Source: Methanomassiliicoccales archaeon
GTDB taxonomy: Archaea > Thermoplasmatota > Thermoplasmata > Methanomassiliicoccales > JACIVX01
DNA length: 64,000 nt
Assembly: GCA_014361295.1 (NCBI GenBank)
Contig: JACIVX010000001.1
Coordinates: 898,293 to 962,292 of the forward strand
Direction: 5' to 3'
The notes beneath the pieces are model-generated. The model was not told the origin of the DNA, did not search any database, and worked only from the letters and a program-made list of their open reading frames with translations. The translations under genes were made by a program, and so were the position numbers. Position 1 is the stretch's first letter, and each line of letters opens with the position of its first letter. Below are positions 4,917 to 59,288 of this stretch, piece after piece.

Positions 4917-5456
4917 CAGCTGCCTAAGATCTGAATATCTGTTACGGATTCACCTTCTTTCTCTCTCAGAGTAATTGAAAACTGAGCGGTTTGTTGCCAA
5001 CTATTTCCAGAAAATCGTGAACCTCCAGCCATGCTGATGAATTACCCGGAGTAGTCATGATATCAATCGAACACGGCTCGGTTGCAAGAAGCAACCTGAT
5101 ATCTTGGCTGAATAATCATTCCTGCTACTGACACCGAATCGATACGCTCATTCGAACTCCGAGCAGGCCAACGTCCTGGTGCTGTGTTCGACAATCTTGC
5201 TTCACACCTCATTTTCTCCACCATTTCGGTTCGGCATCGAGGCGATGACAGAGCCGATAACCGATCATGCTGAACCGCGTATCAGAATGATTCCTATTCG
5301 GTATAGCTCGGCAGTAGGATTGGTGGCCTGCAGAAAGTCGGGAAGGAGATAGAAGGGAAGAAATCAGCCAAAATCTCCGTTCCGATGCTTCGGACATCCA
5401 GATAAAAAGATATTTATTTCAATTTGTTTATTAAAATCCAATCCAATCAAGAAAAG

Positions 5457-5627
5457 TGGGGGCGCTGGGATTTGAACCCAGATCAGCGGGTTTCCACCAC
5501 GCGGGGAGCGACCCCACGCGAATTAACGGGTCATCGCTCCAGTTATTCATCACTGGTCAGCCTACCCGTTGACAATCACGCCCAATTAACTGGAGCCCGC
5601 GAGGATGCCGTGTTACCCCACACCCCC
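5457..5627 (-). tRNA. tRNA-Trp (anticodon CCA) with a 98-nt intron at the canonical 37/38 position
   Basis: Acceptor GGGGGTG pairs with CGCCCCC (one G-U pair), discriminator A. T arm CTGGG-TTCAAAT-CCCAG. Anticodon stem GCGGG/CCCGC with loop CU-CCA-G|intron|A. Exons are 5590-5627 and 5457-5491. No encoded CCA. The D-arm register is slightly ambiguous (2 nt at position 26, or a shifted D stem). Confidence 0.8.
5492..5589 (-). ncRNA. Box C/D guide sRNA embedded in the tRNA-Trp intron, predicted to guide 2'-O-methylation of C34 and position 39 of the same tRNA
   Basis: The minus strand reads cGTGATTG(C)-tcaacgggtagg-CTGA(D')-cca-GTGATGA(C')-ataactggagcg-ATGA(D variant). Both spacers are exactly 12 nt. 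Spacer 2 is complementary to GCTCCAGTTA (anticodon loop plus intron start) and places C34 at the fifth nt upstream of the box. Spacer 1 is complementary to ACCCG-TGA (positions 38-46, one mismatch) and places C39 at the fifth nt upstream. Confidence 0.7.
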
Positions 5628-5806
5628 ATACGATCCTTAAGCCTTCCTCATCTTCTGCTGTCGCTTTCGGCGTCGCATTTTCTTCTTTCGCCATTTCCAA
5701 CGCATCTTGCCTCGCTTCTTCCATGCGCGTGAACTTCTCTTCATCCATATTCCTCGTTTATCCGTGCCGTGATTGTATAGATACTTATCAACCTTTTGAT
5801 ACAGAA

Positions 5807-5930
5807 TGGCGGGCCCGTCGGGAATTTCGCCCCCTGAAGAAGGGATTCGAACCCGAGACATCTGGCTTGCATCCACGATGCAATCTCGTGATAGAAGGCC
5901 AGCGCTATATCCAGGCTAAGCCACGAGCCC
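5807..5930 (-). tRNA. tRNA-Arg (anticodon UCU) with two introns (37/38, 24 nt, 5868-5891; 59/60 in the T-loop, 22 nt, 5824-5845) and an encoded CCA
   Basis: Acceptor GGGCTCG/CGGGCCC, U8, D arm GCTT-AGCCTGGATA-TAGC, anticodon stem CTGGC/GCCAG with loop CU-UCU-A|..|A, variable loop ATGTC, T arm TCGGG-TTCGAA|..|T-CCCGA, discriminator G, CCA. Both inserts fold into helix-bulge-helix-bulge-helix motifs (details in findings). The mature length is 75 nt plus CCA. Confidence 0.75.
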
Positions 5931-5981: not shown

Positions 5982-6587
5982 TCAATCAAGGGTCAAGAAC
6001 GATTGGATTGGATGACCGAACAAGAGCATCACCGATTCGGCAATTGCCAACAAGCCAAGAAAGAAAAGAATTGGACGGAAGCTGATAACGCCTCCAAAGA
6101 AGTCAATGACTCCTTCAAGAACCCTAAGTACAATGTATACTAAAAACATGACAACAAAGATGATAATCAAAATGGTAATCGGTGTTAGCACGACAATCGC
6201 AAATGATTTTGAGATACCATGAAGTGCAATGCCCAAAACGACGCCCGCAATAAGGCTTATCAGAGACGCCCATCGGATTCTCCTGACAACGCGGAAGAAG
6301 AGCCCTAGGCCAAGCGCGATAAAAATAAGCAAAGTGGACGACTGTTCCCATCCGCTTTTCTTATAAATTGAGACGCCTACAAAAATCATGAATGCACCAA
6401 TAAAGAAACCGATGCCCGCAAGAATTTCATCGAGGTAACTCCTTTGATTCTTGCCGATTAGCGCGATCGCAATCGCGACTAATCCGCCAATGAAGAGGAC
6501 AAGGGCAGGAATAGGTTCAGAGAGATATCCGTCGATCAACTTATTTGATATTGATTTCTTGTTTACTAATCTTTTGATCGACTGCAA
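5982..6587 (-). CDS. Integral membrane protein of unknown function (about 6 TM segments); start uncertain
   Basis: The ORF is open to 6785, but its first ~65 codons are non-hydrophobic, low-complexity and antisense to the nitroreductase N-terminus. The hydrophobic body starts near PIPALVLFIGGLVAIAIALIG. A TTG at 6587 is one possible start. Confidence 0.5.
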   Translation of the reverse strand: MQSIKRLVNKKSISNKLIDGYLSEPIPALVLFIGGLVAIAIALIGKNQRSYLDEILAGIGFFIGAFMIFVGVSIYKKSGWEQSSTLLIFIALGLGLFFRVVRRIRWASLISLIAGVVLGIALHGISKSFAIVVLTPITILIIIFVVMFLVYIVLRVLEGVIDFFGGVISFRPILFFLGLLAIAESVMLLFGHPIQSFLTLD

Positions 6588-22008: not shown

Positions 22009-22116
22009 TGCCGGGGACGGGGTTCGAACCCGTGACCTTCGGATATCCCTGGTGGGTTATCATTAACCAACAAAGCCCTATGAGTCCGACGCTCCACCAG
22101 GCTGAGCCACCCCGGC
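22009..22116 (-). tRNA. tRNA with CAU anticodon (elongator Met, or Ile2 if C34 is modified) carrying a 34-nt intron at 37/38 (22045-22078)
   Basis: GCCGGGGTGGCTCAGCCTGGTGGAGCGTCGGACTCATA|intron|ATCCGAAGGTCACGGGTTCGAACCCCGTCCCCGGCA. Acceptor, D, anticodon (TCGGA/TCCGA) and T arms are all canonical. It is not an initiator (no A1-U72). Confidence 0.85.
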
Positions 22117-37856: not shown

Positions 37857-38593
37857 TGCGAGTTGAGCCGTGAATTCTTCAACACTGGGATTCCATTAGG
37901 AATGCCTATACAGGTTTTCGTGAACAGTTCAGTTTGCATCATGCGTACTTAATCTCCCACGTCTATCCGATCGACTGCTCTAAGTAACCACTACTCGATC
38001 GACAAGATCGGAGCAGTTCTCAAAATTCGGTTCTCTCATCTTTCATTTCGCTCCACCATTCGGCGAAATCGCGGGTTATTTGGTTCCTATCAAATGGAAG
38101 TAATGTTCCAAAGGAAGTAGTTGAGGTGTCTGGATTTTTTCACTGATCGTCTGCATCGGCACTTGAGTGAACATATACTTTCTCATCATGATATGTATTT
38201 ATTCCCGCTCCATTCTCACAAAATTGTTAAATGAATTCCACCGAGAAGAGCGGTTCGTAAAATATCAGATGGGCGAATTCTGATAATCCATCCACATCCA
38301 TTGAACACAAGAGCACTAAGAATGGCCCCTGAAATTTGATTAGATATACCGTGATAATACTAGGGAAAACACTTCTTGTCTTTTCTATCTGCGTCATCTG
38401 TTATCAGATTTAGTGTCATTATCTTGGATTTTAACAAAGTTCGGATCGAAGTGCAATTAATTCGCTGCATCGTACGTATCGAGCGTGGTCGCGTGGGTTA
38501 GCAGCTGACGGAGGCGCGGAGAGACACTCCAATCTGGATGGACGAAAAACACGTTATCGGAATCAGAGACGAGTTCACTGGATATGTTTAAAA

Positions 38594-38666
38594 TGGGTCC
38601 GTCCAGATTTGAACTGGAGTCACCAGCACCCCAAGCTGGGAGGATTCCAAGCTACCCCACGGACCC
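38594..38666 (-). tRNA. tRNA-Pro (anticodon GGG)
   Basis: GGGTCCGTGGGGTAGCTTGGAATCCTCCCAGCTTGGGGTGCTGGTGACTCCAGTTCAAATCTGGACGGACCCA. Anticodon stem CCAGC/GCTGG with loop TT-GGG-GT. It starts 20 nt after the rpoN stop. Confidence 0.92.
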
Positions 38667-38686
38667 ATCGGAAAAATGAAAGAGTT

Positions 38687-41395: not shown

Positions 41396-41941
41396 GTGGA
41401 AATCAAGGAAGTGATTTGCTATATCACTAAGGAAGTCCAGGAAACTTTACAAAGGGTAGATCAAAAAGTCGTCGATGAGGTCATCGATTCAATCATCGGT
41501 GCGAAGAAGATCTTTCTCTACGGCGTAGGCCGATCTGGACTCGTCGGCCAAGCATTCGCGGTTAGACTTGTGCAGATGGGGTTGGATGTTCATTTCATCG
41601 GTGAGATGACAACACCGATTGTCGAAGAAAAAGATCTAGTCATCATAGTATCTAACACTGGTGAAACAATGTCCGCTATTCAGACGGCGAACATTGTGAG
41701 GAGGGTTGGCGCGAAAGTCATCGCCGTCACCTCGAACGTCCACTCGAAGTTAAGCCAGGCAGCAAACATCACCGTCGAAATTGCCCCGAAAAAAGATGAC
41801 CAGAGGAAGAAATACGCACCGCTTGGGACACTTTTTGAGGATTCGACATTCGTGTTTTTTGACTGCATTGTCCCGATCATCATGGCAAGACTGGGGCAGA
41901 ACGAGACATCACTGCGTAGACGCCACGCGATCTGGGTCTGA
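41396..41941 (+). CDS. 6-phospho-3-hexuloisomerase-like SIS-domain protein
   Basis: IFLYGVGRSGLVGQAFAVRLVQMGLDVHFIGE...VIIVSNTGET...GAKVIAVTS. GTG start 1 nt after the upstream stop. Confidence 0.75.
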   Translation: MEIKEVICYITKEVQETLQRVDQKVVDEVIDSIIGAKKIFLYGVGRSGLVGQAFAVRLVQMGLDVHFIGEMTTPIVEEKDLVIIVSNTGETMSAIQTANIVRRVGAKVIAVTSNVHSKLSQAANITVEIAPKKDDQRKKYAPLGTLFEDSTFVFFDCIVPIIMARLGQNETSLRRRHAIWV

Positions 41942-42571
41942 ACGTAACTCCCTCTTTTTCACGCGCGTTCCGTAGTAAGGATTTTCATATTCATCCCAGT
42001 AAATCGCAAATTCCCTCGTCCTGATCGCTTTTCCGTCGAGATAGAACGCTTTTATTTCCTTATTTACAGGATCAATGACGATCGCTGTATGACGACTACT
42101 CCTGAATAGAGACCTTTGCGTATATACGTCAGTCGATGACATAAAGCACCCGTGGCCAGGATGCGAATGATACCATCCGACAACGAGGTAATTGAATCCA
42201 GCCTCTTCGAGAGAGGCAAATAATTTTTCGAACGCGTCTCTGTCGAATCGAACATGAACGGAGGAGGACTCGAGGTCGGTCGTTACGACATCCTTGACGA
42301 TCGTGTATTCTTTCCCACCGTTCCTATAAATCCAGCCTAGGAGAAGCCCCATCGCTTCCTTCTGCATCTCGGCGAAACGGATAGAATGATTCCTCATTTT
42401 CTCCTCGGCGATCTTGGAAACATACAACTCGTAGCCGTCCCCTTCCATGCGCTTGTACTCCTCCAAGTCTTTCGCGCTCAACCATTTATGCGGCTTTGTC
42501 CTTTCAAATGGAGGTGGCGGGCGCTCCTCGATTTTTATTTCTTCCGCCCCGAGGATGCGGAGCTGTTTCAA
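41909..42571 (-). CDS. JAMM/MPN+ metalloisopeptidase (Rpn11/deubiquitinase-like), last gene of the ubiquitin-like cassette
   Basis: Conserved Glu (QKEAMGLLLG) and GWYHSHPGHGCFMSSTD, matching ExnHxHx7SxxD. The TTG start overlaps the E2 stop. An ATG at 42448 is an alternative start. Confidence 0.85.
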   Translation of the reverse strand: MKQLRILGAEEIKIEERPPPPFERTKPHKWLSAKDLEEYKRMEGDGYELYVSKIAEEKMRNHSIRFAEMQKEAMGLLLGWIYRNGGKEYTIVKDVVTTDLESSSVHVRFDRDAFEKLFASLEEAGFNYLVVGWYHSHPGHGCFMSSTDVYTQRSLFRSSRHTAIVIDPVNKEIKAFYLDGKAIRTREFAIYWDEYENPYYGTRVKKRELRSDPDRVASTQ

Positions 42572-43077
42572 TCAGATCTCACCACCTTGGGCGTCGGAGA
42601 ATAGACAATTGGAGGAGTCTTGATTTTTGCCCGATTGAAATAGGACGCAGCGGATGTACAGCTCTCCGTTCCGAACGGACTCGAAGGATTGGGGGCGAGG
42701 AGGAGGGCTTCAATCCCCTTGATGAATGATAGCAAAGTTGAATTAAATCCCCACTCATCGAGGAGTTTTGTACATAGATGTCCACCGTCTTCTGGCATCA
42801 TGATATTTGGATGGAATATGGGCGTTCTCCAAATGACCAGCGGCTTTTCGAACGGATAATCCCTCCCGATCAAAATCGAAAATCGGTGTTCATATCGTTT
42901 TTCAATTTTTCCATCTTCACACACAAAACCTGGAACTCCCTTCAGCTCAATCTCGATATTGATCGGAAAGCTACGCAAATTTTCATTAGAGAGATCGATT
43001 GGATGTCTTAGATAACGAGTGCATATCGCGAGCTCGTTCCTGAGTCGAGAAATAAGAATGTCAAGAGGGAGGGACAT
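42568..43077 (-). CDS. Ubiquitin-conjugating enzyme (E2/UBC-fold)-like protein
   Basis: YPFEKPLVIWRTPIFHPNIMMPEDGGHLCTKLLDEWGFNSTL contains the HPN triad and the catalytic Cys in the G-x-[IL]-C-x-x-L..W context of eukaryotic E2s. ATG immediately follows the Ubl stop (TGAATG). Confidence 0.8.
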   Translation of the reverse strand: MSLPLDILISRLRNELAICTRYLRHPIDLSNENLRSFPINIEIELKGVPGFVCEDGKIEKRYEHRFSILIGRDYPFEKPLVIWRTPIFHPNIMMPEDGGHLCTKLLDEWGFNSTLLSFIKGIEALLLAPNPSSPFGTESCTSAASYFNRAKIKTPPIVYSPTPKVVRSD

Positions 43078-43317
43078 TCATCCGCCCTCGGGATCTGGAA
43101 TCAGCTCGAGTTCATCGTTACTAAGAATCCCAGCCTCAGCGACGGTCTGCTGACCTCGCAAAAGCCGCCTGCCTCGTCTGAGAACATAAGCCCCAGCATC
43201 CTTCTCCCAATACCCTGCTGCACCTTCGATAATGTCATCGATCGTGTTTTCTCCTTCTAATTCCATTTCAACGGTCGCTCCTGATTCAGCATTCCTCACT
43301 TTGACTCTGAGCGGCAT
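43078..43317 (-). CDS. Ubiquitin-like beta-grasp protein ending in Gly-Gly
   Basis: 79 aa from ATG 43317: MPLRVKVRNAESGATVEMELEGENTIDDIIEGAAGYWEKDAGAYVLRRGRRLLRGQQTVAEAGILSNDELELIPDPEGG-stop. The strand-strand-helix-strand pattern and length fit the ubiquitin fold. The ORF is also open to a GTG at 43368. Confidence 0.75.
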   Translation of the reverse strand: MPLRVKVRNAESGATVEMELEGENTIDDIIEGAAGYWEKDAGAYVLRRGRRLLRGQQTVAEAGILSNDELELIPDPEGG

Positions 43318-43386
43318 AAAACCACAGAAAGCCAAACAGGCGGAATGCTCATTAAAGCTTTTGATCACAGTTAATTAATTCGATTC

Positions 43387-44211
43387 TCACGAATGAGAAT
43401 ACGGATGAATAGAATTAGATAGATTTGAAAGATGAACCGGACACATCGGATCTAATGAAACTTCAAATGAGTCAAAGGTATTAAGCAATCCGTTGTAATA
43501 GCAAACATGCCTGATACAATTTTCCTTCTTTCCGCTGATAATCTTGAGTCCTTCTCTCACCTGGATTGCTGCAATAATGCTCGTCGTCGTGATTTCTGCG
43601 GGGATTTTAGGCTCGTAAATTGAAATATCTGCACCGGTACAACTGAATCGTTTCTCGAGAATTTTCGCGTGCGTTTTGTTTGTTGCGCATTGCAGGCAAG
43701 GAGTATCAGGAGGCAGTACAACCTGGATTTTTCCAGTTGTGCCATCGGTTCCTCCGTCAATATACGGAACACCATAATAGTACGCGTGAGCATTCAAATG
43801 CAGTCGAGCGCCGATGTTGTCAAAACAACCGAAAACAACATCGTAATTCTTCAAACATCTCAAATCGATTTCCTCGATTCTTGAATTGATCGGCGTGATG
43901 TTTATCTCTGGATTAAGTTCTTTGGCCCGCTTTGCGATGATTTCGGCCTTCATCGATTTTCTTAATGCGTCCTCTTCCCTGAAAAGGACACACCGATTGA
44001 GATTTGAACGCACGACATAATCCATGTCGACAAGCACAATCGATCTTACGCCAGAAAGTACTAGATTTTTGATGACTTCGTTTCCAAGGGCGCCAGCCCC
44101 AGCCACGAAACACCTCGCCGACTCGATTCTTTCCATGTCGAGCCATCTGATCCTTCTTGATCGATCGAACCTATCTTCGTCAATTGCACCTATCCTGATC
44201 AAGGCACTCAT
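43387..44211 (-). CDS. E1-like (ThiF/MoeB/UBA-family) adenylating enzyme
   Basis: FVAGAGALGNEVIKNLVLSGV (GxGxxG), LVDMDYVVRSNLNRCVLF (DxDxVxxSNLxR motif), CLQC zinc/crossover region, candidate catalytic Cys in RFSCTGA. The start is taken at Met15; the ORF is open to 44253. Confidence 0.85.
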   Translation of the reverse strand: MSALIRIGAIDEDRFDRSRRIRWLDMERIESARCFVAGAGALGNEVIKNLVLSGVRSIVLVDMDYVVRSNLNRCVLFREEDALRKSMKAEIIAKRAKELNPEINITPINSRIEEIDLRCLKNYDVVFGCFDNIGARLHLNAHAYYYGVPYIDGGTDGTTGKIQVVLPPDTPCLQCATNKTHAKILEKRFSCTGADISIYEPKIPAEITTTSIIAAIQVREGLKIISGKKENCIRHVCYYNGLLNTFDSFEVSLDPMCPVHLSNLSNSIHPYSHS

Positions 44212-44575
44212 CCTTTGGTGGAATATGACGGCGATAAATAAAACGAACTTCAATATTCGAGTCTGTGAGAATCATGCCCTATCAACGAAGAAAGACCCAG
44301 TCTCCTTTTTCGAAACAAGAAAATGGCATTTTCATAGAGCACGATTCGGCCAAAAAATGCGTTTTCCAAAGTACAAAAATTGAATTCTGATACAGAGGGT
44401 ATCATCAAGCCCCCAATTTTCGTGCAAATTGTATGGTAGATTCCTGCATCGAATTATAATTAATCAAGCTACTCCCATATATCCATTGACAAGACCATCC
44501 TGATCTTATTAAAAATGCCAGGTTCTTGGAAAAATTCATTACACGGCAAGCTCTTTTCCAGCCTGCGGTGCACTA

Positions 44576-46311: not shown

Positions 46312-47868
46312 ATGACAAATAGTCCTCTGATTTTTATCCCTTTTTGCATGGAGATTCCAGAGATCATCGAAAGCCTCAGCCCCAACGAAAAACGAGTTCT
46401 CATCGCACTGAAGGATCTCGGTGGAATTGGGACTCCTGAGGATGTAATGAAAAGGGGAAATTTCAGGCAGCTTGTCGAGGTCATGAATGCTGCTTCCTGG
46501 CTTCAGTCAAAAGAGCTCGTACGCATCGAAGAGAGCGCAAAGAAGGTTTATTCATTAAAGGACCAAAAGATTATTGAAGAGGGATTGCCTGAACGGAGGG
46601 CACTCAATGCAATTCATTCTCGTGGCGGGATGATCGACGCCCATGATCTCGAAGGAGTTCTTAATAAAGAAGAAATTCCCATTGCTATAGGATGGCTCAA
46701 GAGAAAAGGGCTTGTGGATATCAAGAAAGACAGTTCAAGAACGTTACTGGAGCTTACGAACCAGGGTAGAAAGGTAGTATCCTCAGAGATGGAAGACGAA
46801 AAAATTCTCAAGCTGCTTGGGGAAAGAGAGGTCCTTGAGGGCGAAGCGGATAAGAAGATTATTGAACGATTGAAGTCTCGCCAGAACTTGATCAACGAGA
46901 GACTCGTGGTAAGGAGAAAGCTGATTTTGACGGAACTAGGATCGAAAATTGCTTCACAGAAGCTCGAGGCGAGAGAGGAAGTCGGTCAGATTACACCAGA
47001 TCTTATACAAACCGGACGGTGGCGGGACGTCACACTGAGGAAGTACGACATCAGAACTTATGCACCCTCCGCGTATCCAGGAAAGAAGCATCCCATTACG
47101 AGAATGGCTTCGGAGGTGCGGAGAATCTTTGTTCAGATGGGATTTAAGGAAATCGATGATGAGTACGTTCAGGCGGCGTTCTGGAACATGGATGCGCTTT
47201 TCACACCACAGGATCACCCAGCGAGAGATCTTCAGGACACTTTCTATCTGAAAAATCCTGCGAAGATTCCGCTAGAGGACGAGGAACTCGTTAAAAAAGT
47301 CAAAGAAATGCATGAAACAGGAGGCTGGACTGGTTCGACTGGTTGGCGATATAGGTGGAGAAGAGAGGAGGCAGAAAAGGCGCTGCTACGAACGCATACA
47401 ACAGTTGCGACAATCCGTTATCTTGCAAAGAATCCTAACCCGCCAATCAAAGTTTTCTCGATCTCAAGGATTTTTCGTAATGAGGCGATCGACGCAACGC
47501 ACTTGCCAGAGTTCATGCAAATCGAGGGCATTGTCGTTGAAGAGGGGGCAAACTTCGACATGCTCTGTGGCATTTTAAAAGAATTTTACCGACAGATGGG
47601 GTTCAAAAAACTAAGATTCCGACCAGGTTATTTCCCATACACTGAGCCATCGCTCGAAGTCGAGGTTTTTCACAATGGAAAATGGATGGAGCTCGGCGGT
47701 GCGGGAATTTTCAGACCCGAAGTGACGGCACCGTTCGGCGTGAAACACAATGTGCTGGCGTGGGGACTTGGTTTCGAAAGAATCGCAATGCTGCGGTGGA
47801 ACCTGACAGATATCAGGGAACTTTATATCAGCGATATCGATCTCCTGAGAAAGAGTCCGATTTTTTAG
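46312..47868 (+). CDS. pheS: Phenylalanyl-tRNA synthetase alpha subunit (archaeal)
   Basis: N-terminal winged-helix repeats. Class II motifs: HPARDLQDTFY, LLRTHTT, FRNEAIDATHLPEFMQIEG, GAGIFRPEV, AWGLGFERIAM. Confidence 0.92.
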   Translation: MTNSPLIFIPFCMEIPEIIESLSPNEKRVLIALKDLGGIGTPEDVMKRGNFRQLVEVMNAASWLQSKELVRIEESAKKVYSLKDQKIIEEGLPERRALNAIHSRGGMIDAHDLEGVLNKEEIPIAIGWLKRKGLVDIKKDSSRTLLELTNQGRKVVSSEMEDEKILKLLGEREVLEGEADKKIIERLKSRQNLINERLVVRRKLILTELGSKIASQKLEAREEVGQITPDLIQTGRWRDVTLRKYDIRTYAPSAYPGKKHPITRMASEVRRIFVQMGFKEIDDEYVQAAFWNMDALFTPQDHPARDLQDTFYLKNPAKIPLEDEELVKKVKEMHETGGWTGSTGWRYRWRREEAEKALLRTHTTVATIRYLAKNPNPPIKVFSISRIFRNEAIDATHLPEFMQIEGIVVEEGANFDMLCGILKEFYRQMGFKKLRFRPGYFPYTEPSLEVEVFHNGKWMELGGAGIFRPEVTAPFGVKHNVLAWGLGFERIAMLRWNLTDIRELYISDIDLLRKSPIF

Positions 47869-49180
47869 TAGCCGCTAGTTTCGCGCTGATTTCCATCGAT
47901 TTATCCTTCATGCCGAGGAGCAAATATGCTTCGGCAAGAGCCTTGATCACCTTCGAACCATCCTGATTTTTAAGCAGTCCGAGACTTTTGCTAAAACATT
48001 TGACTGCTTCCTGCCCGTTTCCCAAACTCATATGTACCAGGCCGAGCTGGTAGTAAAGCCTGTCGAGAAATTCTGGATCTCGCTTTTTCAACTGCATCGG
48101 CAGAATTGATTCTAAAATGCTCCTTGCTTCGTCATAACGCTTGAGGCCGATGAGTGCGTCAACAATCTCGCATTCGAGCCTCACATTACTACTGTCATCG
48201 CCAAATAATTTTTTCCCCTCGGTGAAGTATACAAGTGCTTCTTCAAAGTTGTTCTTGCCCCGCGCGACGAGGCCTTTGATCATTTTCCCTTCCGCCTGTT
48301 CCCTCGTCGTTGAGAATCCCTCAAGTTTGCTCGCCAATTTGCTTGCAAAGTCATTATGACCAGTTTTTAGCGCGACCTCGGCGGCGAAAATGAAGACCTT
48401 GCCAGCATACCTTTCGGAGGGATTTGTCATGAGTGATGCGATCGAAAAGAGATCCTCATCAGCATCCGCAATCAGATGCTGCCGTCTGTTCGCAATCAAT
48501 ATCTCCGCCTCGCGCATCCTACCAGCCTCGATAAGATGATACAATCGCTCCCTGTAATCGCCTTCCTGCAGCCAGTAATCCGCCGCAAAACTATGATATC
48601 GCTTCAAGTCAGAAGGCTCAACGAGTTGCACGATCGCTTTTCTCAAATCTTCCGGGATCTCGACTATCCCGTCTGGATTCGTTGGCAGTAAAGCGATGCT
48701 CGTCTCCGGCAAAGCCGATCTTCTGAAAGGTTTCCTGAATACGCAAGCCTGCGCGAGAATTGGTCGGAATTTGCCATCGATCGAATTCCACAGCTCTTCG
48801 CCTTTACACTTTCTCAAATCTAACAACGGTGTAATGGCGATTCCTTCCTTCTCGGCGAACTCGCGAATCTTCTGTGCTCGCCCTTCTCCCTTTGGCGTCA
48901 AAAAATAGACCTTTCGTTTCGTTTTCCCTTTCTTGACATGTGCAAGACGTTCGATGACCTCCGAAGTTTCTTTGAGCTTCTTGAGCTCGATAGCCGCATG
49001 CGCTCTTGAAATCCTTATCGCCGAAGCGATTCCGTCTTGGCTGACTTCCATCGGCACATCGTATTCATCCTGAAATCGTGAATACTGGGAAAGATGGAGA
49101 ACGATTCTCTCGGCAACAGTAAGTGAAGCGGGCATGTGGGGTTTATCGGATATCCAGATATATAGATATACGGAAAACAT
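47828..49180 (-). CDS. Winged-HTH plus TPR-repeat protein (putative regulator)
   Basis: N-terminal wHTH-like segment (LTVAERIVLHL...SQDGIASAIRISRAHAAIELKKL...KVYFLTPKG) and C-terminal TPR-like repeats. It overlaps the convergent pheS 3' end by 41 nt. Confidence 0.7.
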   Translation of the reverse strand: MFSVYLYIWISDKPHMPASLTVAERIVLHLSQYSRFQDEYDVPMEVSQDGIASAIRISRAHAAIELKKLKETSEVIERLAHVKKGKTKRKVYFLTPKGEGRAQKIREFAEKEGIAITPLLDLRKCKGEELWNSIDGKFRPILAQACVFRKPFRRSALPETSIALLPTNPDGIVEIPEDLRKAIVQLVEPSDLKRYHSFAADYWLQEGDYRERLYHLIEAGRMREAEILIANRRQHLIADADEDLFSIASLMTNPSERYAGKVFIFAAEVALKTGHNDFASKLASKLEGFSTTREQAEGKMIKGLVARGKNNFEEALVYFTEGKKLFGDDSSNVRLECEIVDALIGLKRYDEARSILESILPMQLKKRDPEFLDRLYYQLGLVHMSLGNGQEAVKCFSKSLGLLKNQDGSKVIKALAEAYLLLGMKDKSMEISAKLAATKKSDSFSGDRYR

Positions 49181-56357: not shown

Positions 56358-59288
56358 TCACTTCTTCTCTTTACCGCCCTTTTCTGGCTTCGTTTCTCCT
56401 TTTGTCTTGCCGCCGACCTTCGGCAAGCGCTTCCTCATGTAGACGAGAATGATCACGACGATGATGACGGCAAAAATCCCACCGTAAATCGCTGCAGCCT
56501 TCCAGCCCGCTTCCTTCACCGTCAGAGAAGTTGTGTAGCTGTTATCGTTCTTACTGATTTCTCCACTCGCGGTCACTTCAACATAGATCGTGTAATTCCC
56601 TTTGGTATCAGCCCTCCACTGGAATGTGATGATCCCGTAATGACCAGGCAGAAGCTGTCCACCTACAGTGCCGTTCAGGATGCTCGATGTTCCGAGAGGC
56701 TGCTTTTGGCCCGTGAGCGTCATCTTGTAGAATGTCGCCACAATGTTCGTCGCATTTGCATTTCCCACATTAGTCACATTGAGCTTCATCGTACCAATTT
56801 CGCCCTCTGTGAAGATCGCTGGGTCGAAGACCAAGGAAGTGACTCTGAGATCGGGCCTCGGAGACGATGTGATCACAATTTGCTTCGTGAGATTTGCTGA
56901 GTTTCCTGATTTGTCAGTCACTGTCAACTTGATTGTGAAAGTCTTTATCGCCGCGAAGCTATGCGTTACATTGACGCCTGTCGCATTGGTCCCATCACTG
57001 AAATCCCATCTGAAGGTGAGATTCTGTAGGCTGTCGACATTGTCGGTTGTGGCACTCGCATCGAAATAAAGAGTCGTGTTTTCCATCGCCGTCGTGACCG
57101 ACGCGAACTTTTCGTCCTTGATGACAAAAGAGACGATCGGGCCCGTTGTGTCCTTCACGACGACCATTATCTGCGCGACAGAGTAGTGACCGACAACATC
57201 CGTCACGTTTAGCTTTACAACATAGTTTCCTGCCCTAGGATATGCATGAGAAACATTCTGATTCTCGCCCCTCATGATCGTGGTTTGATTGCCATCGCCG
57301 AAGTCCCATTTCCAAGAATAGATTAAACCCTTCTGCGCATCGGATGATGAGTTCGTATAGTCGTAAGATGAAGCACCGTTGAAGACCAGTGCTTCCGACT
57401 GGTTAGCGTAGATCTTGTTGTTCTGTATCTGCTTGTTGAGTACCTGGATCACTGGGGTAGGATTAACAGAGTCGATTCTAACGGAGAATGACGCGGAATC
57501 TTTCAAGCCAGCAACATCAACAACTGTAAGTGAAACCGTCAATTCGTAAATTGCCAGAGTGTAATTGTGCTTCGTTGTAACGGTCGTCACTTCCGCTACG
57601 TTCCCGTCACCGAAGTCCCATACGTATTTCAGTGGGTTCCCATTCGGATCGTACGAACCAGCTGCACTGAACGACACCTCAGTATCGAATGCGACAATAT
57701 AGTAGAGAAGCGTTGAGTTTGCGTCTCTGACATCGTAAACATTGGTGCCAGTGACAAGGCTTGCAACGGCTTTTGGCGCAACGGATTTCTGGAATGTCAT
57801 CGTCACAGAGGCAAGCGATGTTGACGCGTAGAGCTGTGGCTGGATGGTCAAATCGAGGTAACCATAGACCTTGACATAGGAGCTGCTCGTTGTGTTCGCC
57901 GTCAACTCATAACCGTCTGGAAGGGAGATATGATACACATAATCGAGTGTTTGAGTGTCGTAACTTGCATAAAGTTGACCAGTATATGATTGAGTCCCCA
58001 AAGAAATCGCCGATACGGAATCATAGCGCGTTTTCAGCAAAGCCGAGTACTGCTGCGTCGAATTTGTAGGTCCGAGGAGGCCGAAATACTCGAGTGAAGA
58101 GAATCCCTCGATTTGAGAGACGAACTTCGTCCCATTGACTTTCATCAGCCACTCGCTTGTTACATTCTGTGGACCGAATGAAGTGATCTTCTGCAAGAAT
58201 GCTTGAAGCTCTGTGGTGTTTATTTCGCCATCACCATCTCCTAGCGCAAAATCAATCTGCATGCGGAGGCTCTTCAGATAACTATACGGCAGACTTGGAA
58301 TCGTTGCATCGAAGTCCATTGTTAAATTAGTAGTCAAGTTGAAGTGATTCCAATCATTCTCGTAAAATTCCAACGAAAGGCTTGTCGTCTGGACAGACTG
58401 TGATGTGAGGTTGACCATCATCGTTTTTGTCGCCGACAAGACGACCTTCGTCATATTCGCCTTCGCGTTCGCCGCATCGACAATCAGATAAAATTCTCCG
58501 GTGTAGGCATCGAACTCAAAATAGTTCGTTCCGAGGGTCTTGGGCCTTACAATTCTTTTTTCAATGTCCAGCGATGTCGATGTTGAGATAAGGCAGGCGG
58601 TCAGACCTTGTGTAACGGGCATACCGTTGAGGTACGCGTATCCTCTAAAGATAGTAGAAGTATCCATGTAAATCGTCATCGTCTCATTTCCCGTGATCTC
58701 AACGAGCGTCACATTCGTCGCATATCCGGAGCAGGAGACGATGAGCTTGTAGGTCGAAGGATATACTGGCACGACGAACGAACCATCTGCTGATGTCGAG
58801 TTGTATATCTCCTGCATATTATTCTCGATATCAAGCACTTTGAGTCTGACGCCATTGACGGCGATTGCTGTTCCGTTTTTGAAAACGCTGACTGTCAGGG
58901 TATAGTCCTTTGACGGCAATTCTTCAAGGGCGACTAAATTCAGAGCAAGCGGAGACATGCCATCAAATCTAATGATCTGGGGATATACATAATCGAAATA
59001 CCCTGATTTGACTATTGTGAGTTCATAATATCCTGGCAAAGGATTAAAAGTGACAAGACCGCTTGAGTCGCTCACATTGGTATATTTCTTAAGCGTGTGA
59101 ACCTCCCTCAGGGTCGCTTGAACTCCAACGACAGGTTTTCCATCTCCGTCAACTACGTTGAACGATATCTGATTCGATGTGCTGGTTGCAACTGCATTAG
59201 GTCCTGGCAAGAAAGCCAGAGACGAAAGCAGAATTAACAGAGCCAGCAATCCAGTTATGACCTTTGCTCCATTGTTCTTATGCACCAT
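56358..59288 (-). CDS. Large cell-surface (S-layer-like) glycoprotein: signal peptide, CarboxypepD_reg-like repeats, three PKD domains, CARDB-like domain, C-terminal TM anchor and Lys-rich tail
   Basis: 976 aa with an N-terminal signal/TM. Repeated ..GKPV.G..V......G.Y.L.. beta-sandwich units. PKD signatures YVWDFGDGN, WKWDFGDGN, FRWDFSDGT. C-terminal AAIYGGIFAVIIVVIILVYMRKRLPK... About 30 N-x-S/T sequons by manual count. Confidence 0.85.
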   Translation of the reverse strand: MVHKNNGAKVITGLLALLILLSSLAFLPGPNAVATSTSNQISFNVVDGDGKPVVGVQATLREVHTLKKYTNVSDSSGLVTFNPLPGYYELTIVKSGYFDYVYPQIIRFDGMSPLALNLVALEELPSKDYTLTVSVFKNGTAIAVNGVRLKVLDIENNMQEIYNSTSADGSFVVPVYPSTYKLIVSCSGYATNVTLVEITGNETMTIYMDTSTIFRGYAYLNGMPVTQGLTACLISTSTSLDIEKRIVRPKTLGTNYFEFDAYTGEFYLIVDAANAKANMTKVVLSATKTMMVNLTSQSVQTTSLSLEFYENDWNHFNLTTNLTMDFDATIPSLPYSYLKSLRMQIDFALGDGDGEINTTELQAFLQKITSFGPQNVTSEWLMKVNGTKFVSQIEGFSSLEYFGLLGPTNSTQQYSALLKTRYDSVSAISLGTQSYTGQLYASYDTQTLDYVYHISLPDGYELTANTTSSSYVKVYGYLDLTIQPQLYASTSLASVTMTFQKSVAPKAVASLVTGTNVYDVRDANSTLLYYIVAFDTEVSFSAAGSYDPNGNPLKYVWDFGDGNVAEVTTVTTKHNYTLAIYELTVSLTVVDVAGLKDSASFSVRIDSVNPTPVIQVLNKQIQNNKIYANQSEALVFNGASSYDYTNSSSDAQKGLIYSWKWDFGDGNQTTIMRGENQNVSHAYPRAGNYVVKLNVTDVVGHYSVAQIMVVVKDTTGPIVSFVIKDEKFASVTTAMENTTLYFDASATTDNVDSLQNLTFRWDFSDGTNATGVNVTHSFAAIKTFTIKLTVTDKSGNSANLTKQIVITSSPRPDLRVTSLVFDPAIFTEGEIGTMKLNVTNVGNANATNIVATFYKMTLTGQKQPLGTSSILNGTVGGQLLPGHYGIITFQWRADTKGNYTIYVEVTASGEISKNDNSYTTSLTVKEAGWKAAAIYGGIFAVIIVVIILVYMRKRLPKVGGKTKGETKPEKGGKEKK

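Follow-up and report, generated by a model that had tools for sequence, protein, structure and literature searches.

Does a cluster of four minus-strand genes in a Methanomassiliicoccales archaeon (Thermoplasmatota) encode a ubiquitin-type conjugation system, and what kind of system would it be? We examined this cassette, which comprises genes for an E1, a ubiquitin-like modifier (Ubl), an E2 and a JAMM protease, within a 64-kb stretch of chromosomal DNA (hereafter the window). The host had been described as euryarchaeal-like, which is correct for Methanomassiliicoccales in the older sense of that term. The cassette is confirmed as a genuine set of E1, Ubl, E2 and JAMM genes. We consider it likely, with a probability of about 0.75, that it represents a chromosomal, vertically inherited ubiquitin-type conjugation module of Methanomassiliicoccales and related Thermoplasmata.

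The cassette (41909-44253, minus strand) consists of four open reading frames (ORFs) that lie where the original prediction had placed them: E1 (43387..44253, 288 aa from a TTG), Ubl (43078..43368, 96 aa from a GTG), E2 (42568..43077, 169 aa) and JAMM (41909..42571, 220 aa from a TTG). The motifs that it had quoted, GAGALGNEV, DMDYVVRSNLNRCVLF, the ...DPEGG-stop terminus, FHPNIMMPEDGGHLCTKLLDEW and HSHPGHGCFMSSTD, were all found. Comparison with relatives places the start of the E1 at the ATG at 44211 (MSALIRIG...), which gives a protein of 274 aa (43387..44211) within the ORF that reaches the TTG at 44253, and that of the Ubl at the ATG at 43317, for a protein of 79 aa (43078..43317). The residue numbers used here for the E1 follow the 288-aa ORF.

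All four genes had been thought to be tightly packed into one translationally coupled operon. This holds for Ubl, E2 and JAMM: the TGA of the Ubl gene abuts the ATG of the E2 gene (TGAATG), and the TGA of the latter overlaps the TTG of the JAMM gene by 4 nt (TTGA). The relatives show start/stop junctions of the ATGA, TGATG and GTGA types, and in them the JAMM start codon occupies the same -4 overlap as ATG (13 cases), GTG (8) or TTG (8). It does not hold for the E1, whose stop codon is separated from the Ubl ATG by a 69-nt spacer. The spacer contains the BRE/TATA-like motif AAAAGCTTTAAT (43351..43362, minus strand), whose start lies 45 nt upstream of the ATG of the Ubl gene. The pattern [AG]AA[AG]N2-4[AT]T[AT][AT]A begins at -50 to -41 from the Ubl start in 44 of 78 aligned loci, whereas shuffled sequences gave 0.6 on average and never more than 3; the pattern was derived from the same sequences used for the counting. 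It is found upstream of neither E2 (0/79) nor JAMM (0/78). The motif may thus act as a promoter for Ubl-E2-JAMM and, since this conserved element sets the E1 apart from the rest, the cassette probably comprises two transcription units.

The 169-aa protein had been proposed to be a UBC-fold E2, and both its profile matches and its structural model identify it as such. It scores above the cut-off of Pfam UQ_con (E=3.4e-12; 46.6 bits, cut-off 27), and its best sequence match in the PDB is Ubc12 (2e-10), with Cys102 (codon 42772..42774) aligned to the Ubc12 catalytic Cys. The H89-P90-N91 triad is encoded at 42805..42813. The HPN triad, C102, W109 and PN..SPFG are invariant among 20 homologues. The AlphaFold model has a pLDDT of 81.8, with values below 50 in the C-terminal tail. 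This tail is predicted to be disordered and includes a P-K-V-V-R motif (42598..42612) that is conserved. A Foldseek search with this model returned Ube2K, UBE2S, Ubc9 and Rad6 at a probability of 1.00, and the top matches were all eukaryotic E2s. The TM score to solved E2s is about 0.6 for this model of moderate quality, and the sequence identity to eukaryotic E2s is 20-28%. Fusions of E2 with JAMM were found among the relatives.

The nature of the 79-aa protein (...ELIPDPEGG-stop) could not be read from sequence searches: it scored 14.4 bits against Pfam ubiquitin, under the 25.4 cut-off, and had no sequence match in the PDB. Its fold therefore had to be shown by modelling. The AlphaFold model (pLDDT 91.5) has the order beta-beta-alpha-beta-beta-(alpha)-beta and matched SUMO1, ISG15, ubiquitin, NEDD8 and Caldiarchaeum ubiquitin (6fj7) with TM scores of 0.83-0.87 at a Foldseek probability of 1.00. 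The 50 best Foldseek matches listed are SUMO, ISG15, ubiquitin, NEDD8, Hub1 and Caldiarchaeum ubiquitin; MoaD, ThiS and SAMP are absent from them. The beta-grasp fold anticipated for this protein is, as modelled, of the ubiquitin type. The terminal IPDPEGG is invariant across 33 aligned homologues. Since the protein ends at GG with no tail, it would be already mature and processing would not be needed. The Ubl terminates at GG in 44 of 78 relatives and extends beyond it by 1-6 residues in the other 34; such variable tails after an invariant GG are the pattern expected of a C-terminally processed modifier. Other relatives have Ubl-E2 fusions with a PDPxGG junction, adjoined by E1 and JAB genes.

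The E1 is a predicted Ubl-adenylating enzyme of the ThiF/MoeB fold (Pfam ThiF, E=1.9e-52). It has GxGxxG at residues 52-57 and a zinc site formed by C186/C189 and C270/H273. A short crossover loop holds Cys205 (codon 43639..43641), a candidate for the catalytic residue. Across 62 orthologues, there is little or no variation in GAGALG, DMD, SNLNR, CxxC, SCTG and CPxH. The best sequence match in the PDB is UBA1 (7e-31, two stretches summed); SAE2 scored 88 bits, UBA3 80, MoeB 76 and UBA5 51, the match to UBA5 extending across residues 38-272. The crossover loop has 23 residues, compared with about 82 in UBA3, which include the Cys domain. As judged from these alignments, the E1 has a MoeB/UBA5-type architecture: it consists of one domain and has neither a catalytic Cys domain nor a ubiquitin-fold domain (UFD). 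Canonical E1s load E2s by means of these two domains. Their absence counts against the conjugation reading, and the Cys in the crossover loop is no more than a candidate for the thioester-forming residue.

These features raise the possibility that the Ubl is a sulfur carrier of the MoaD/ThiS/SAMP/Urm1 kind, which the E1 would adenylate and then thiocarboxylate for cofactor or tRNA thiolation, with conjugation being secondary or absent. The single-domain MoeB/ThiF architecture with its short crossover loop is consistent with such a role, as are the best NCBIfam matches of the E1, to ThiF (120 bits) and MoeB (100 bits). However, these scores are far under the respective cut-offs of 275 and 266, as is that to UbaA (82 against 450), and Pfam detected no rhodanese domain in the E1. 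The prediction that the E1 would not group with MoeB/ThiF is supported: its scores are below the cut-offs and its adenylation core favours SAE2, UBA3 and UBA1 over MoeB, although its architecture is that of MoeB and UBA5. The Ubl model resembles ubiquitin, SUMO and ISG15, with no sulfur carrier among the 50 best matches listed. An E2 with intact HPN and Cys and an Rpn11-like JAMM are always inherited together with the Ubl, to which they are translationally coupled. Neither the window genes adjoining the cassette nor the flanks read in three relatives include a MoaE-, ThiG- or Ncs6-like gene. We regard a sulfur-carrier function as improbable.

The fourth protein had been called an MPN+/JAMM protease, and its sequence supports an Rpn11-like member of that family. 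It matched Pfam JAB with E=1.3e-13, yeast Rpn11 with 9e-19 (71 bits) and the Caldiarchaeum Rpn11-like protein (6fjv) with 4e-14; the matches to CSN5 (1e-11) and AMSH (about 26 bits) were weaker. Against the NCBIfam desampylase model it scored 29 bits, where the cut-off is 130. Its catalytic set, E72, H135-x-H137, S145 and D148 (H135 to D148 at 42128..42169), is invariant in 62 orthologues.

Relatives of the E2 were found by a pattern scan in 184 genome stretches. The best 80 of these are all from Thermoplasmata, either Methanomassiliicoccales or other members, and the order E1-Ubl-E2-JAMM is kept in almost every one. The window cassette lies between trpS and a pair of genes for a SIS-domain protein and an AP_endonuc_2 TIM barrel, in agreement with the housekeeping setting described previously; most of the best 80 loci that are long enough to show these flanks have kept them. 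The identities of the cassette proteins track those of the flanks, with a Spearman rho of 0.55-0.78 against the TIM-barrel gene. The cassette is also present in the cultured Methanomassiliicoccus luminyensis, and it is conserved across the order Methanomassiliicoccales. Catalytic residues of E1, E2 and JAMM do not vary among 20-62 orthologues that are only 45-60% identical.

As the best matches in both sequence and structure are eukaryotic proteins, we considered whether the cassette is a recent transfer from eukaryotes or Asgard archaea, or an assembly contaminant, that does not function in this lineage. The genes are, however, arranged in a prokaryotic manner, as an operon in which start and stop codons overlap, and their G+C content of 0.459 fits the 0.42-0.50 found elsewhere in the window. 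The same locus occurs in nearly all of the best 80 independent assemblies and in cultured M. luminyensis, the catalytic residues are under purifying selection, and the identity of the E2 to its eukaryotic E2 matches is only 20-28%. Synteny and conservation effectively refute this explanation, which we consider highly improbable.

A further alternative is antiviral defence of the BilABCD type, in which E1 and E2 would, upon infection, place the Ubl on structural proteins of a virus and the JAB protease would process or recycle the Ubl. Bil systems likewise consist of Ubl, E2, JAB and E1 and have no E3 (PMC11354881; 10.1101/2024.10.26.620412). Weak matches to PADLOC models were seen for the E1 (52.6 bits to Cap2 E1-E2 models, 20.7 to BilD) and the JAMM (26 bits to defence JAB models). 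These matches cover generic cores only, however, and E2 and Ubl match no PADLOC model; all four proteins score higher to their eukaryotic or Caldiarchaeum counterparts than to defence models. Defence systems are typically patchy and located in variable islands. Here, the same housekeeping flanks recur in nearly all of the best 80 loci and cassette identities co-vary with them, the Pfam-scanned ORFs of the window (roughly 30-60.7 kb) include no defence or mobile genes, and no relative of the cassette was found on viral contigs. We regard a defence function as improbable.

We propose that the cassette most likely encodes a functional conjugation system in which the Ubl passes from E1 to E2 and on to targets independently of an E3, and in which the JAMM serves for processing and removal. 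The E1, which presumably forms homodimers as MoeB and UBA5 do, would bind ATP-Mg and adenylate Gly79 of the Ubl, and a Ubl thioester could then form on the invariant Cys of its crossover loop (S-C-T-G). The Ubl would be handed to Cys102 of the E2, which, by means of the HPN asparagine, may place it straight onto target lysines without a dedicated RING E3. The proposed absence of a RING gene from the cassette was upheld by a RING-pattern scan in six frames, which found none in the 64-kb window. The Rpn11-like JAMM would take the Ubl off its targets and would also expose the GG where the Ubl of relatives has a short tail or is fused to an E2. Homologous Caldiarchaeum proteins carry out exactly these steps in vitro (PMC5654768). 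Ubl, E2 and JAMM may be made from one coupled message that starts from the putative promoter in the spacer, with the E1 expressed separately or additionally. Its role would most plausibly lie in the regulation of housekeeping processes or in proteasome targeting, and not in defence.

Parts of the cassette have been recognized before: NCBI annotation already names these E2s, a 2015 paper called the M. luminyensis JAMM an Rpn11 orthologue, and Thermoplasmatota E2s are included in the E2 tree of a 2023 preprint. The cassette is therefore a well-supported further example and not a novel class of system. The operon of Ca. Caldiarchaeum subterraneum encodes Ub, an E1-like, an E2-like and a small RING finger protein, with an Rpn11-like JAMM adjacent (Nunoura 2011, PMC3082918; Hennell James 2017, PMC5654768); PDB entries 6fj7, 6fjv and 6fnn are listed as its ubiquitin and Rpn11-homolog. 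Both systems combine a GG-ending ubiquitin-fold modifier, an HPN/Cys UBC E2 and an Rpn11-like MPN+ protease in a cluster on an archaeal chromosome. The window Ubl model superimposes on Caldiarchaeum ubiquitin with a TM score of 0.86, the JAMM matches the Caldiarchaeum Rpn11 homologue (4e-14), and the Ubl tails of many relatives resemble the 9-residue propeptide removed by Caldiarchaeum Rpn11 (PMC5654768). In contrast to Caldiarchaeum, the window cassette lacks a RING (srfp) gene, its 274-aa E1 has no Cys domain or C-terminal ubiquitin-like domain whereas the Caldiarchaeum E1 is modelled with four canonical domains, and its JAMM is co-directional and coupled to the E2 instead of divergently transcribed beside the operon. 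Its Ubl ends at GG and would need no processing, and its host belongs to Thermoplasmatota rather than to TACK or Asgard archaea.

Compared by description, the architecture also matches the archaeal 'Cluster III' (Hennell James 2017, supplementary note 4), which has Ub, E1-like, E2-like and JAB proteins and E1s without the ubiquitin-like domain at the C-terminus. The E2s of that cluster are reported to fall with E2-like proteins of bacteria, whereas the window E2 is above the eukaryotic UQ_con threshold. The terms 'Methano' and 'Euryarchae' are absent from the supplement text of PMC5654768 and 'Euryarchae' from its main text, the species being given in a figure. The bacterial, ISG15-like antiphage system BilABCD shares the Ubl, E2, JAB protease and E1 as well as the absence of an E3. 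It differs in that BilA is built of two ubiquitin-like domains and a Cys domain, with Cys417, is present in BilD (PMC11354881), while the window Ubl is single-domain and the window E1 has no Cys domain; PADLOC Bil models miss the window E2, Ubl and JAMM, BilD gave 20.7 bits to the E1, and the window cassette lies not in a defence island but among housekeeping genes, in a setting that is syntenic and order-wide.

The E2-less sampylation system of Haloferax volcanii (SAMP/UbaA/HvJAMM1) likewise has a single-domain MoeB-like E1, a GG beta-grasp modifier and a JAMM deconjugase, in a lineage that, as the window host, is traditionally classed as euryarchaeal. Unlike it, the window cassette includes an E2, its Ubl resembles ubiquitin and SUMO in fold, and not MoaD or SAMP, and its E1 (82 versus 450 for UbaA) and JAMM (29 versus 130 for desampylase) score low, the JAMM being much nearer to Rpn11 (71 bits). 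UBA5, the minimal E1 of eukaryotes, is a homodimeric single-domain enzyme with its catalytic Cys in the crossover loop. The window E1 has this layout, and no UFM1-like or UFC1-like features were seen in the cassette. Ubc9 and Ubc12 are E3-independent E2s; Ubc12 is the best sequence match of the window E2, and Ubc9 is among its structural matches. At an E2 identity of 20-28%, the likeness of the cassette to UBA5, Ubc9 and Ubc12 is one of mechanism and not of orthology.

The original prediction of four co-directional minus-strand genes at 41909-44253 is borne out by the open reading frame listing and the raw sequence, and all of the motifs quoted with it are present in the window. Judging by comparison with relatives, the E1 gene (43387-44211) likely starts at an ATG at 44211, which gives a protein of 274 aa, and the Ubl gene (43078-43317) at an ATG at 43317, which gives 79 aa; the E2 gene (42568-43077) and the JAMM gene (41909-42571) follow. 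The TGA of the Ubl gene is directly followed by the ATG of the E2 gene (TGAATG), and the TTG start of the JAMM gene overlaps the E2 stop by 4 nt. The proposal of a single coupled operon thus stands for the junctions from Ubl through E2 to JAMM, but not for E1, whose stop is 69 nt before the Ubl ATG. Among relatives, the Ubl-E2 junction varies from -17 to +17 nt and is mostly between -4 and +5, while the E2-JAMM junction is mostly -4 or -8, or else the JAMM alignment starts no more than about 15 nt past the E2 stop. The overlaps are of the classical ATGA, TGATG, GTGA and TTGA types. The E1-Ubl spacer is usually 50-110 nt long and is reduced to 1-19 nt in about ten loci.

The 169-aa protein was examined against Pfam and by structural modelling. 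It scored 46.6 bits to UQ_con (PF00179), over the gathering cut-off of 27, and its AlphaFold model, of moderate quality with a pLDDT of 81.8, matched solved E2s in Foldseek with a probability of 1.00, eukaryotic E2s alone occupying the top of the list. These results agree with the UBC fold that had been read from the sequence. The best sequence match in the PDB is Ubc12 (2e-10), and in that alignment the Cys of the E2 falls on the position of the Ubc12 catalytic Cys. Residues H89-P90-N91, C102 and Trp109 are invariant in 20 homologues. The C-terminal tail is disordered, with pLDDT below 50, and contains the peptide PKVVR at residues 156-160 (42598-42612, minus strand). The P-[KR]-V-V core is conserved in E2 tails and recurs at the C-terminus of distantly related fusions of Ubl and E2 (GPRVV); docking of E1, JAMM or another partner is a possible role for it.

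The fold of the Ubl was established by modelling, since a sequence search of the PDB returned noise alone (best E-value 0.27). The AlphaFold model, built with 33 homologues as input, has a pLDDT of 91.5 and the topology of ubiquitin. Its 50 best Foldseek matches listed are SUMO, ISG15, ubiquitin, NEDD8, Hub1 and Caldiarchaeum ubiquitin at TM 0.83-0.87, and neither MoaD nor ThiS is found among those 50. The suggestion that this protein is a beta-grasp is thus supported by the model. By model fold and by its GG-stop end the Ubl is of the ubiquitin type, although its score of 14.4 bits to the Pfam ubiquitin model falls under the cut-off of 25.4. The sequence IPDPEGG is invariant across the 33 homologues. 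The final Lys or Arg of the window Ubl is 24 residues from its C-terminus, so that a tryptic remnant would be long, while Glu-C, which cuts after Glu77 (PDPE|GG), is expected to yield a standard K-GG remnant. In 44 of 78 loci, the window among them, GG is the very end of the encoded protein, whereas a tail of 1-6 variable residues (NR, A, SR, FSGPPY, YRAPPQ and others) follows GG in the remaining 34. Variable tails are the pattern expected if a protease must expose the GG of the modifier. In Caldiarchaeum, the GG of pro-ubiquitin is exposed by its Rpn11 (PMC5654768).

In canonical E1 enzymes the crossover loop is interrupted by a catalytic cysteine domain, and the E2 is recruited through a ubiquitin-fold domain (UFD) at the C-terminus. 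The E1 of the cassette lacks both and so is not of the canonical eukaryote type represented by UBA1, UBA2, UBA3 and the Caldiarchaeum E1. Its crossover has 23 residues between the CxxC zinc pair and the PKIPAE helix, as against about 82, including the catalytic Cys domain, in UBA3, and its C-terminus shows no UFD-like part, ending 15 residues after the CPxH zinc ligands. Across 62 orthologues there is no variation in GxGxxG, DMD, SNLNR, the zinc ligands or the Cys of the loop sequence S-C-T-G. This Cys is a candidate for the catalytic residue. The short loop, the missing UFD and the invariant loop Cys together make this E1 minimal in the manner of MoeB or UBA5. Against solved structures, its adenylation core scored 88 bits to SAE2, 80 to UBA3 and 76 to the active adenylation domain of UBA1 (the headline value of 7e-31 for UBA1 sums two stretches), compared with 76 to full-length MoeB and 51 to UBA5. 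While it matches Pfam ThiF with E=1.9e-52, its assignment to a named sulfur-carrier family was rejected because no score came near the NCBIfam equivalog cut-off, whether for ThiF (TIGR02356, 120 versus 275), UbaA (NF047750, 82 versus 450) or MoeB (NF004281, 100 versus 266; TIGR02355, 89 versus 377).

For the JAMM protein, the PDB matches were headed by yeast Rpn11 (9e-19, 71 bits), the Caldiarchaeum Rpn11 homologue (4e-14, 56 bits) and CSN5 (1e-11, 48 bits), with far lower scores for AMSH (26 bits) and the Mov34/MPN/PAD-1 family protein 2kcq (21 bits). The metal site, E72, H135, H137, S145 and D148, is invariant in 62 orthologues. By metal site and closest similarity the protein is an MPN+ protease of the Rpn11/CSN5 type and a predicted isopeptidase. 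A desampylase was rejected for the same reason as the E1 families, the NCBIfam model scoring 29 with a cut-off of 130. Indeed, none of the four cassette proteins matched any NCBIfam family above its cut-off. The 3' end of the JAMM gene (minus) overlaps that of the SIS-domain gene (plus) convergently by 33 nt at 41909-41941, and many relatives show a similar overlap, of about 27 nt.

We propose a Ubl conjugation cascade as the best-supported model for these four proteins. The model is built on the domain identities and the conservation just described; the thioesters and isopeptide conjugates it invokes are what family knowledge, the conserved residues and the biochemistry of the reconstituted Caldiarchaeum homologues would predict. 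Gly79 of the Ubl would be adenylated by E1, and the Ubl would be taken as a thioester by the crossover-loop Cys and handed on to Cys102 of the E2. The E2 would then modify lysines with no dedicated E3. Consistent with the earlier statement that no RING accompanies the cassette, a six-frame regular-expression scan of the 64-kb window for a small RING E3 gene returned no C3H2C3 or C3HC4 pattern. JAMM would remove the Ubl and, in relatives, would also carry out its maturation.

Gene fusions link Ubl, E2 and JAMM to one another independently of the operon. An exhaustive profile search returned 3964 E2 relatives, 30 of them below 1e-30. Among them are Ubl-E2 fusions from metagenomic contigs, represented by the loci L081 (1742-2509) and L083 (2133-2909) and by the proteins P0243, P0304, P0308, P0310, P0311 and P0335; a profile search with these fusions as the query returned 5 proteins. 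At their junction an invariant P-x-P-x-G-G (PDPxGG) leads directly into the N-terminal helix of the E2. By analogy with eukaryotic ubiquitin fusion precursors, such a protein would need to be cut after GG. Both fusion genes read in contig context, those of L081 and L083, adjoin a ThiF-type E1, and L083 has a JAB gene two genes upstream of the fusion. E2-JAMM fusions also occur. In one of them, P0235 (682 aa), the E2 Cys is retained, the MPN motif is degenerate (HSAPND) and a zinc ribbon follows at the C-terminus; the other, P0253 (534 aa), has lost the E2 Cys (GGDVHLGY) and has HSHPGYGCYMSSTD intact. A third group of 220-232 aa (P0264, P0270, P0273-P0278, P0280-P0282, P0285, P0288 and P0290) combines an N-terminal Ubl-like domain without GG with a UEV-like E2 in which HPN is kept and the catalytic Cys is absent.

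The spacer between E1 and Ubl contains a BRE/TATA-like motif, AAAAGCTTTAAT, at 43351-43362 on the minus strand. The pattern [AG]AA[AG]N2-4[AT]T[AT][AT]A, starting 41-50 nt upstream of the Ubl start, was present in 44 of 78 loci against a shuffle mean of 0.6, the pattern having been derived from the same sequences on which it was counted. It was absent before the E2 and JAMM starts of this set of loci. From the spacer and the motif before the Ubl start we infer a putative separate promoter for Ubl-E2-JAMM. Next to the BRE/TATA-like element, on its upstream side, 31 of 78 loci have T[AG]A[CTA][TA][GC]T[GAC]A[TC], which in relatives falls at roughly -62 to -51 from the Ubl start; the window copy is TTAACTGTGAT at 43364-43374 (minus strand). 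In another clade this place is taken by CTACAGGTA (18 of 78 loci). These clade-specific motifs, whose patterns were derived after viewing the sequences, may be binding sites for regulators.

The distribution of the cassette was followed through its E2. The best homologues are from metagenome-assembled genomes of Methanomassiliicoccales (95% identity), and one from the cultured Methanomassiliicoccus luminyensis is also among them. A pattern scan covering one genome for each GTDB species returned 184 E2-relative stretches, the best 80 of which all belong to Methanomassiliicoccales or other Thermoplasmata/Thermoplasmatota. The order E1, Ubl, E2, JAMM was recovered by tblastn in almost all of these 80 loci. 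Where the loci were long enough, most shared trpS, trmO and pheS divergently upstream and the SIS and TIM-barrel genes convergently downstream. Across loci, the cassette proteins and the flanking genes co-vary in sequence identity (Spearman rho 0.55-0.78 against the TIM-barrel gene). Their medians are comparable, with 55% for E1, 58% for E2, 53% for JAMM and 70% for Ubl, and 72%, 67% and 61% for the flanking TrpS, TIM and SIS proteins. The G+C content of the window is uniform, a scan of viral contigs found no relatives of the cassette, and the neighbours scanned in the window encode ribosomal proteins, aminoacyl-tRNA synthetases, aRF1 and the like, translation and metabolism genes rather than defence or mobile ones, as originally predicted. 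Taken together, the synteny, the co-varying identities, the uniform G+C, the housekeeping neighbours and the empty viral scan indicate that the cassette is a vertically inherited chromosomal housekeeping locus and not a mobile defence island.

Some relatives depart from this arrangement. In loci L018, L032 and L053, E1 and Ubl are separated by an inserted 2.5-4 kb. In three relatives that were read, variable additional genes occupy either the gap from trpS to E1 or the one from JAMM to the SIS gene. Locus L002 has a 379-aa membrane protein between trpS and E1 (3627-4766) and L008 a polyphosphate kinase upstream of E1 (2653-4779), neither of which is found in the window or in L001. These two and a secreted or membrane protein of L059 were considered as E3 or partner candidates and were rejected because they are not conserved. 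The archaeal locus L051 encodes two tandem E2 paralogues of 170 and 172 aa (5405-5917 and 5992-6510), 53% identical to the window E2, which adjoin a glutamine-synthetase-like gene (identified by eye from the translation) with no E1, Ubl or JAMM nearby. Two genes of the window are conspicuous in surroundings that are mostly devoted to translation. A 450-aa protein with C-terminal TPR repeats (47828-49180) and a 976-aa surface-type protein with PKD, CARDB and CarboxypepD_reg domains (56358-59288), both on the minus strand, show no link to the cassette in relatives. Also on the minus strand, a 108-nt Rfam tRNA at 22009-22116 is absent from the ARAGORN output and probably carries an intron, while the tRNA-Pro (GGG) called by ARAGORN at 38593-38667 is under the Rfam gathering score.

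Discussion of eukaryote-like E1-E2 ubiquitylation in archaea has hitherto centred on Aigarchaeota and the Asgard group, and in the literature searched it has been reconstituted in vitro only from the uncultured Caldiarchaeum subterraneum. The present results add a complete and compact Ubl-E1-E2-Rpn11-like set, conserved on the chromosomes of Methanomassiliicoccales and related Thermoplasmata. Searchable literature on ubiquitin systems of Methanomassiliicoccales, Thermoplasmatota and Euryarchaeota gave no account of the operon in Methanomassiliicoccales. Parts of it had been noticed: Fort et al. 2015 called an MPN protein of M. luminyensis an Rpn11 orthologue, alongside that of Caldiarchaeum; in a 2023 preprint, 'Ca. 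Thermoplasmatota E2' branches deeply in the tree of archaeal E2/UEV proteins; and several of the best E2 homologues are already named 'ubiquitin-conjugating enzyme E2' by NCBI. Grau-Bove et al. reported on Euryarchaeota only through a marine group II genome, which encodes a UCH deubiquitinase as well as RING E3s. With both the E2 and the JAMM recognised earlier, and with systems of this type known, current ideas are not overturned. The interest of the cassette lies chiefly in its cultured host and its minimal E1. Because cultured M. luminyensis belongs to the group, the tagged targets, a link to the proteasome and the loading of E2 by a UFD-less E1 are directly testable in vivo. The minimal E1 and the absent E3 also make the cassette useful for comparison when asking how MoeB-type systems gave rise to an E2 step. 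It is conceivable, if on balance rather unlikely, that E2-dependent, RING-less conjugation is an ancestral, vertically inherited core function of one entire order within the Thermoplasmatota, M. luminyensis included. The cassette would then stand for an E1-E2-Ubl-Rpn11 lineage that branched off before the Asgard, TACK and eukaryote versions, as the deep position of the Thermoplasmatota E2 in that one published tree suggests. In that case, ubiquitylation of the eukaryote-like kind would have a greater age and a broader spread among Archaea than an Asgard-centred view allows, and a single-domain E1 with no UFD and no E3 would show the first addition of an E2 step to MoeB-like activation.

The cassette was compared with the known systems that it resembles in part. 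Bacterial BilABCD, an antiphage system, has the same four-part composition, but its profiles do not match and its genomic behaviour is unlike that of the cassette. In PADLOC, BilD gave 20.7 bits to E1 over the adenylation core alone, BilA, BilB and BilC gave no matches, and the E2 and Ubl matched no model at all. BilABCD-type islands are variable and sporadic, whereas most of the best 80 loci have the cassette in one and the same place, with trpS on one side and the SIS/TIM genes on the other. The Cap2 models of CBASS likewise covered only the E1 core, with up to 52.6 bits. In CBASS, E1 and E2 form one fusion protein whose gene neighbours those of a CD-NTase and an effector; in the cassette the two enzymes are encoded separately, on either side of the Ubl gene, and no CD-NTase-like gene was seen among the neighbours scanned. 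Membership in Bil or CBASS Cap2/Cap3 was rejected because the PADLOC matches are to generic E1/JAB cores only. The cassette is not of the SAMP/UbaA kind either, its UbaA score being far under the cut-off. In protein type it is most like the ubiquitylation clusters of Caldiarchaeum and Asgard archaea, but Caldiarchaeum-type clusters have a RING protein and a multi-domain E1, whereas the cassette has neither, for the RING protein within the window. Hennell James et al. (PMC5654768) describe archaeal 'Cluster III' as having E1s without the C-terminal UBL domain, and, judged by this description, the cassette may correspond to that cluster.
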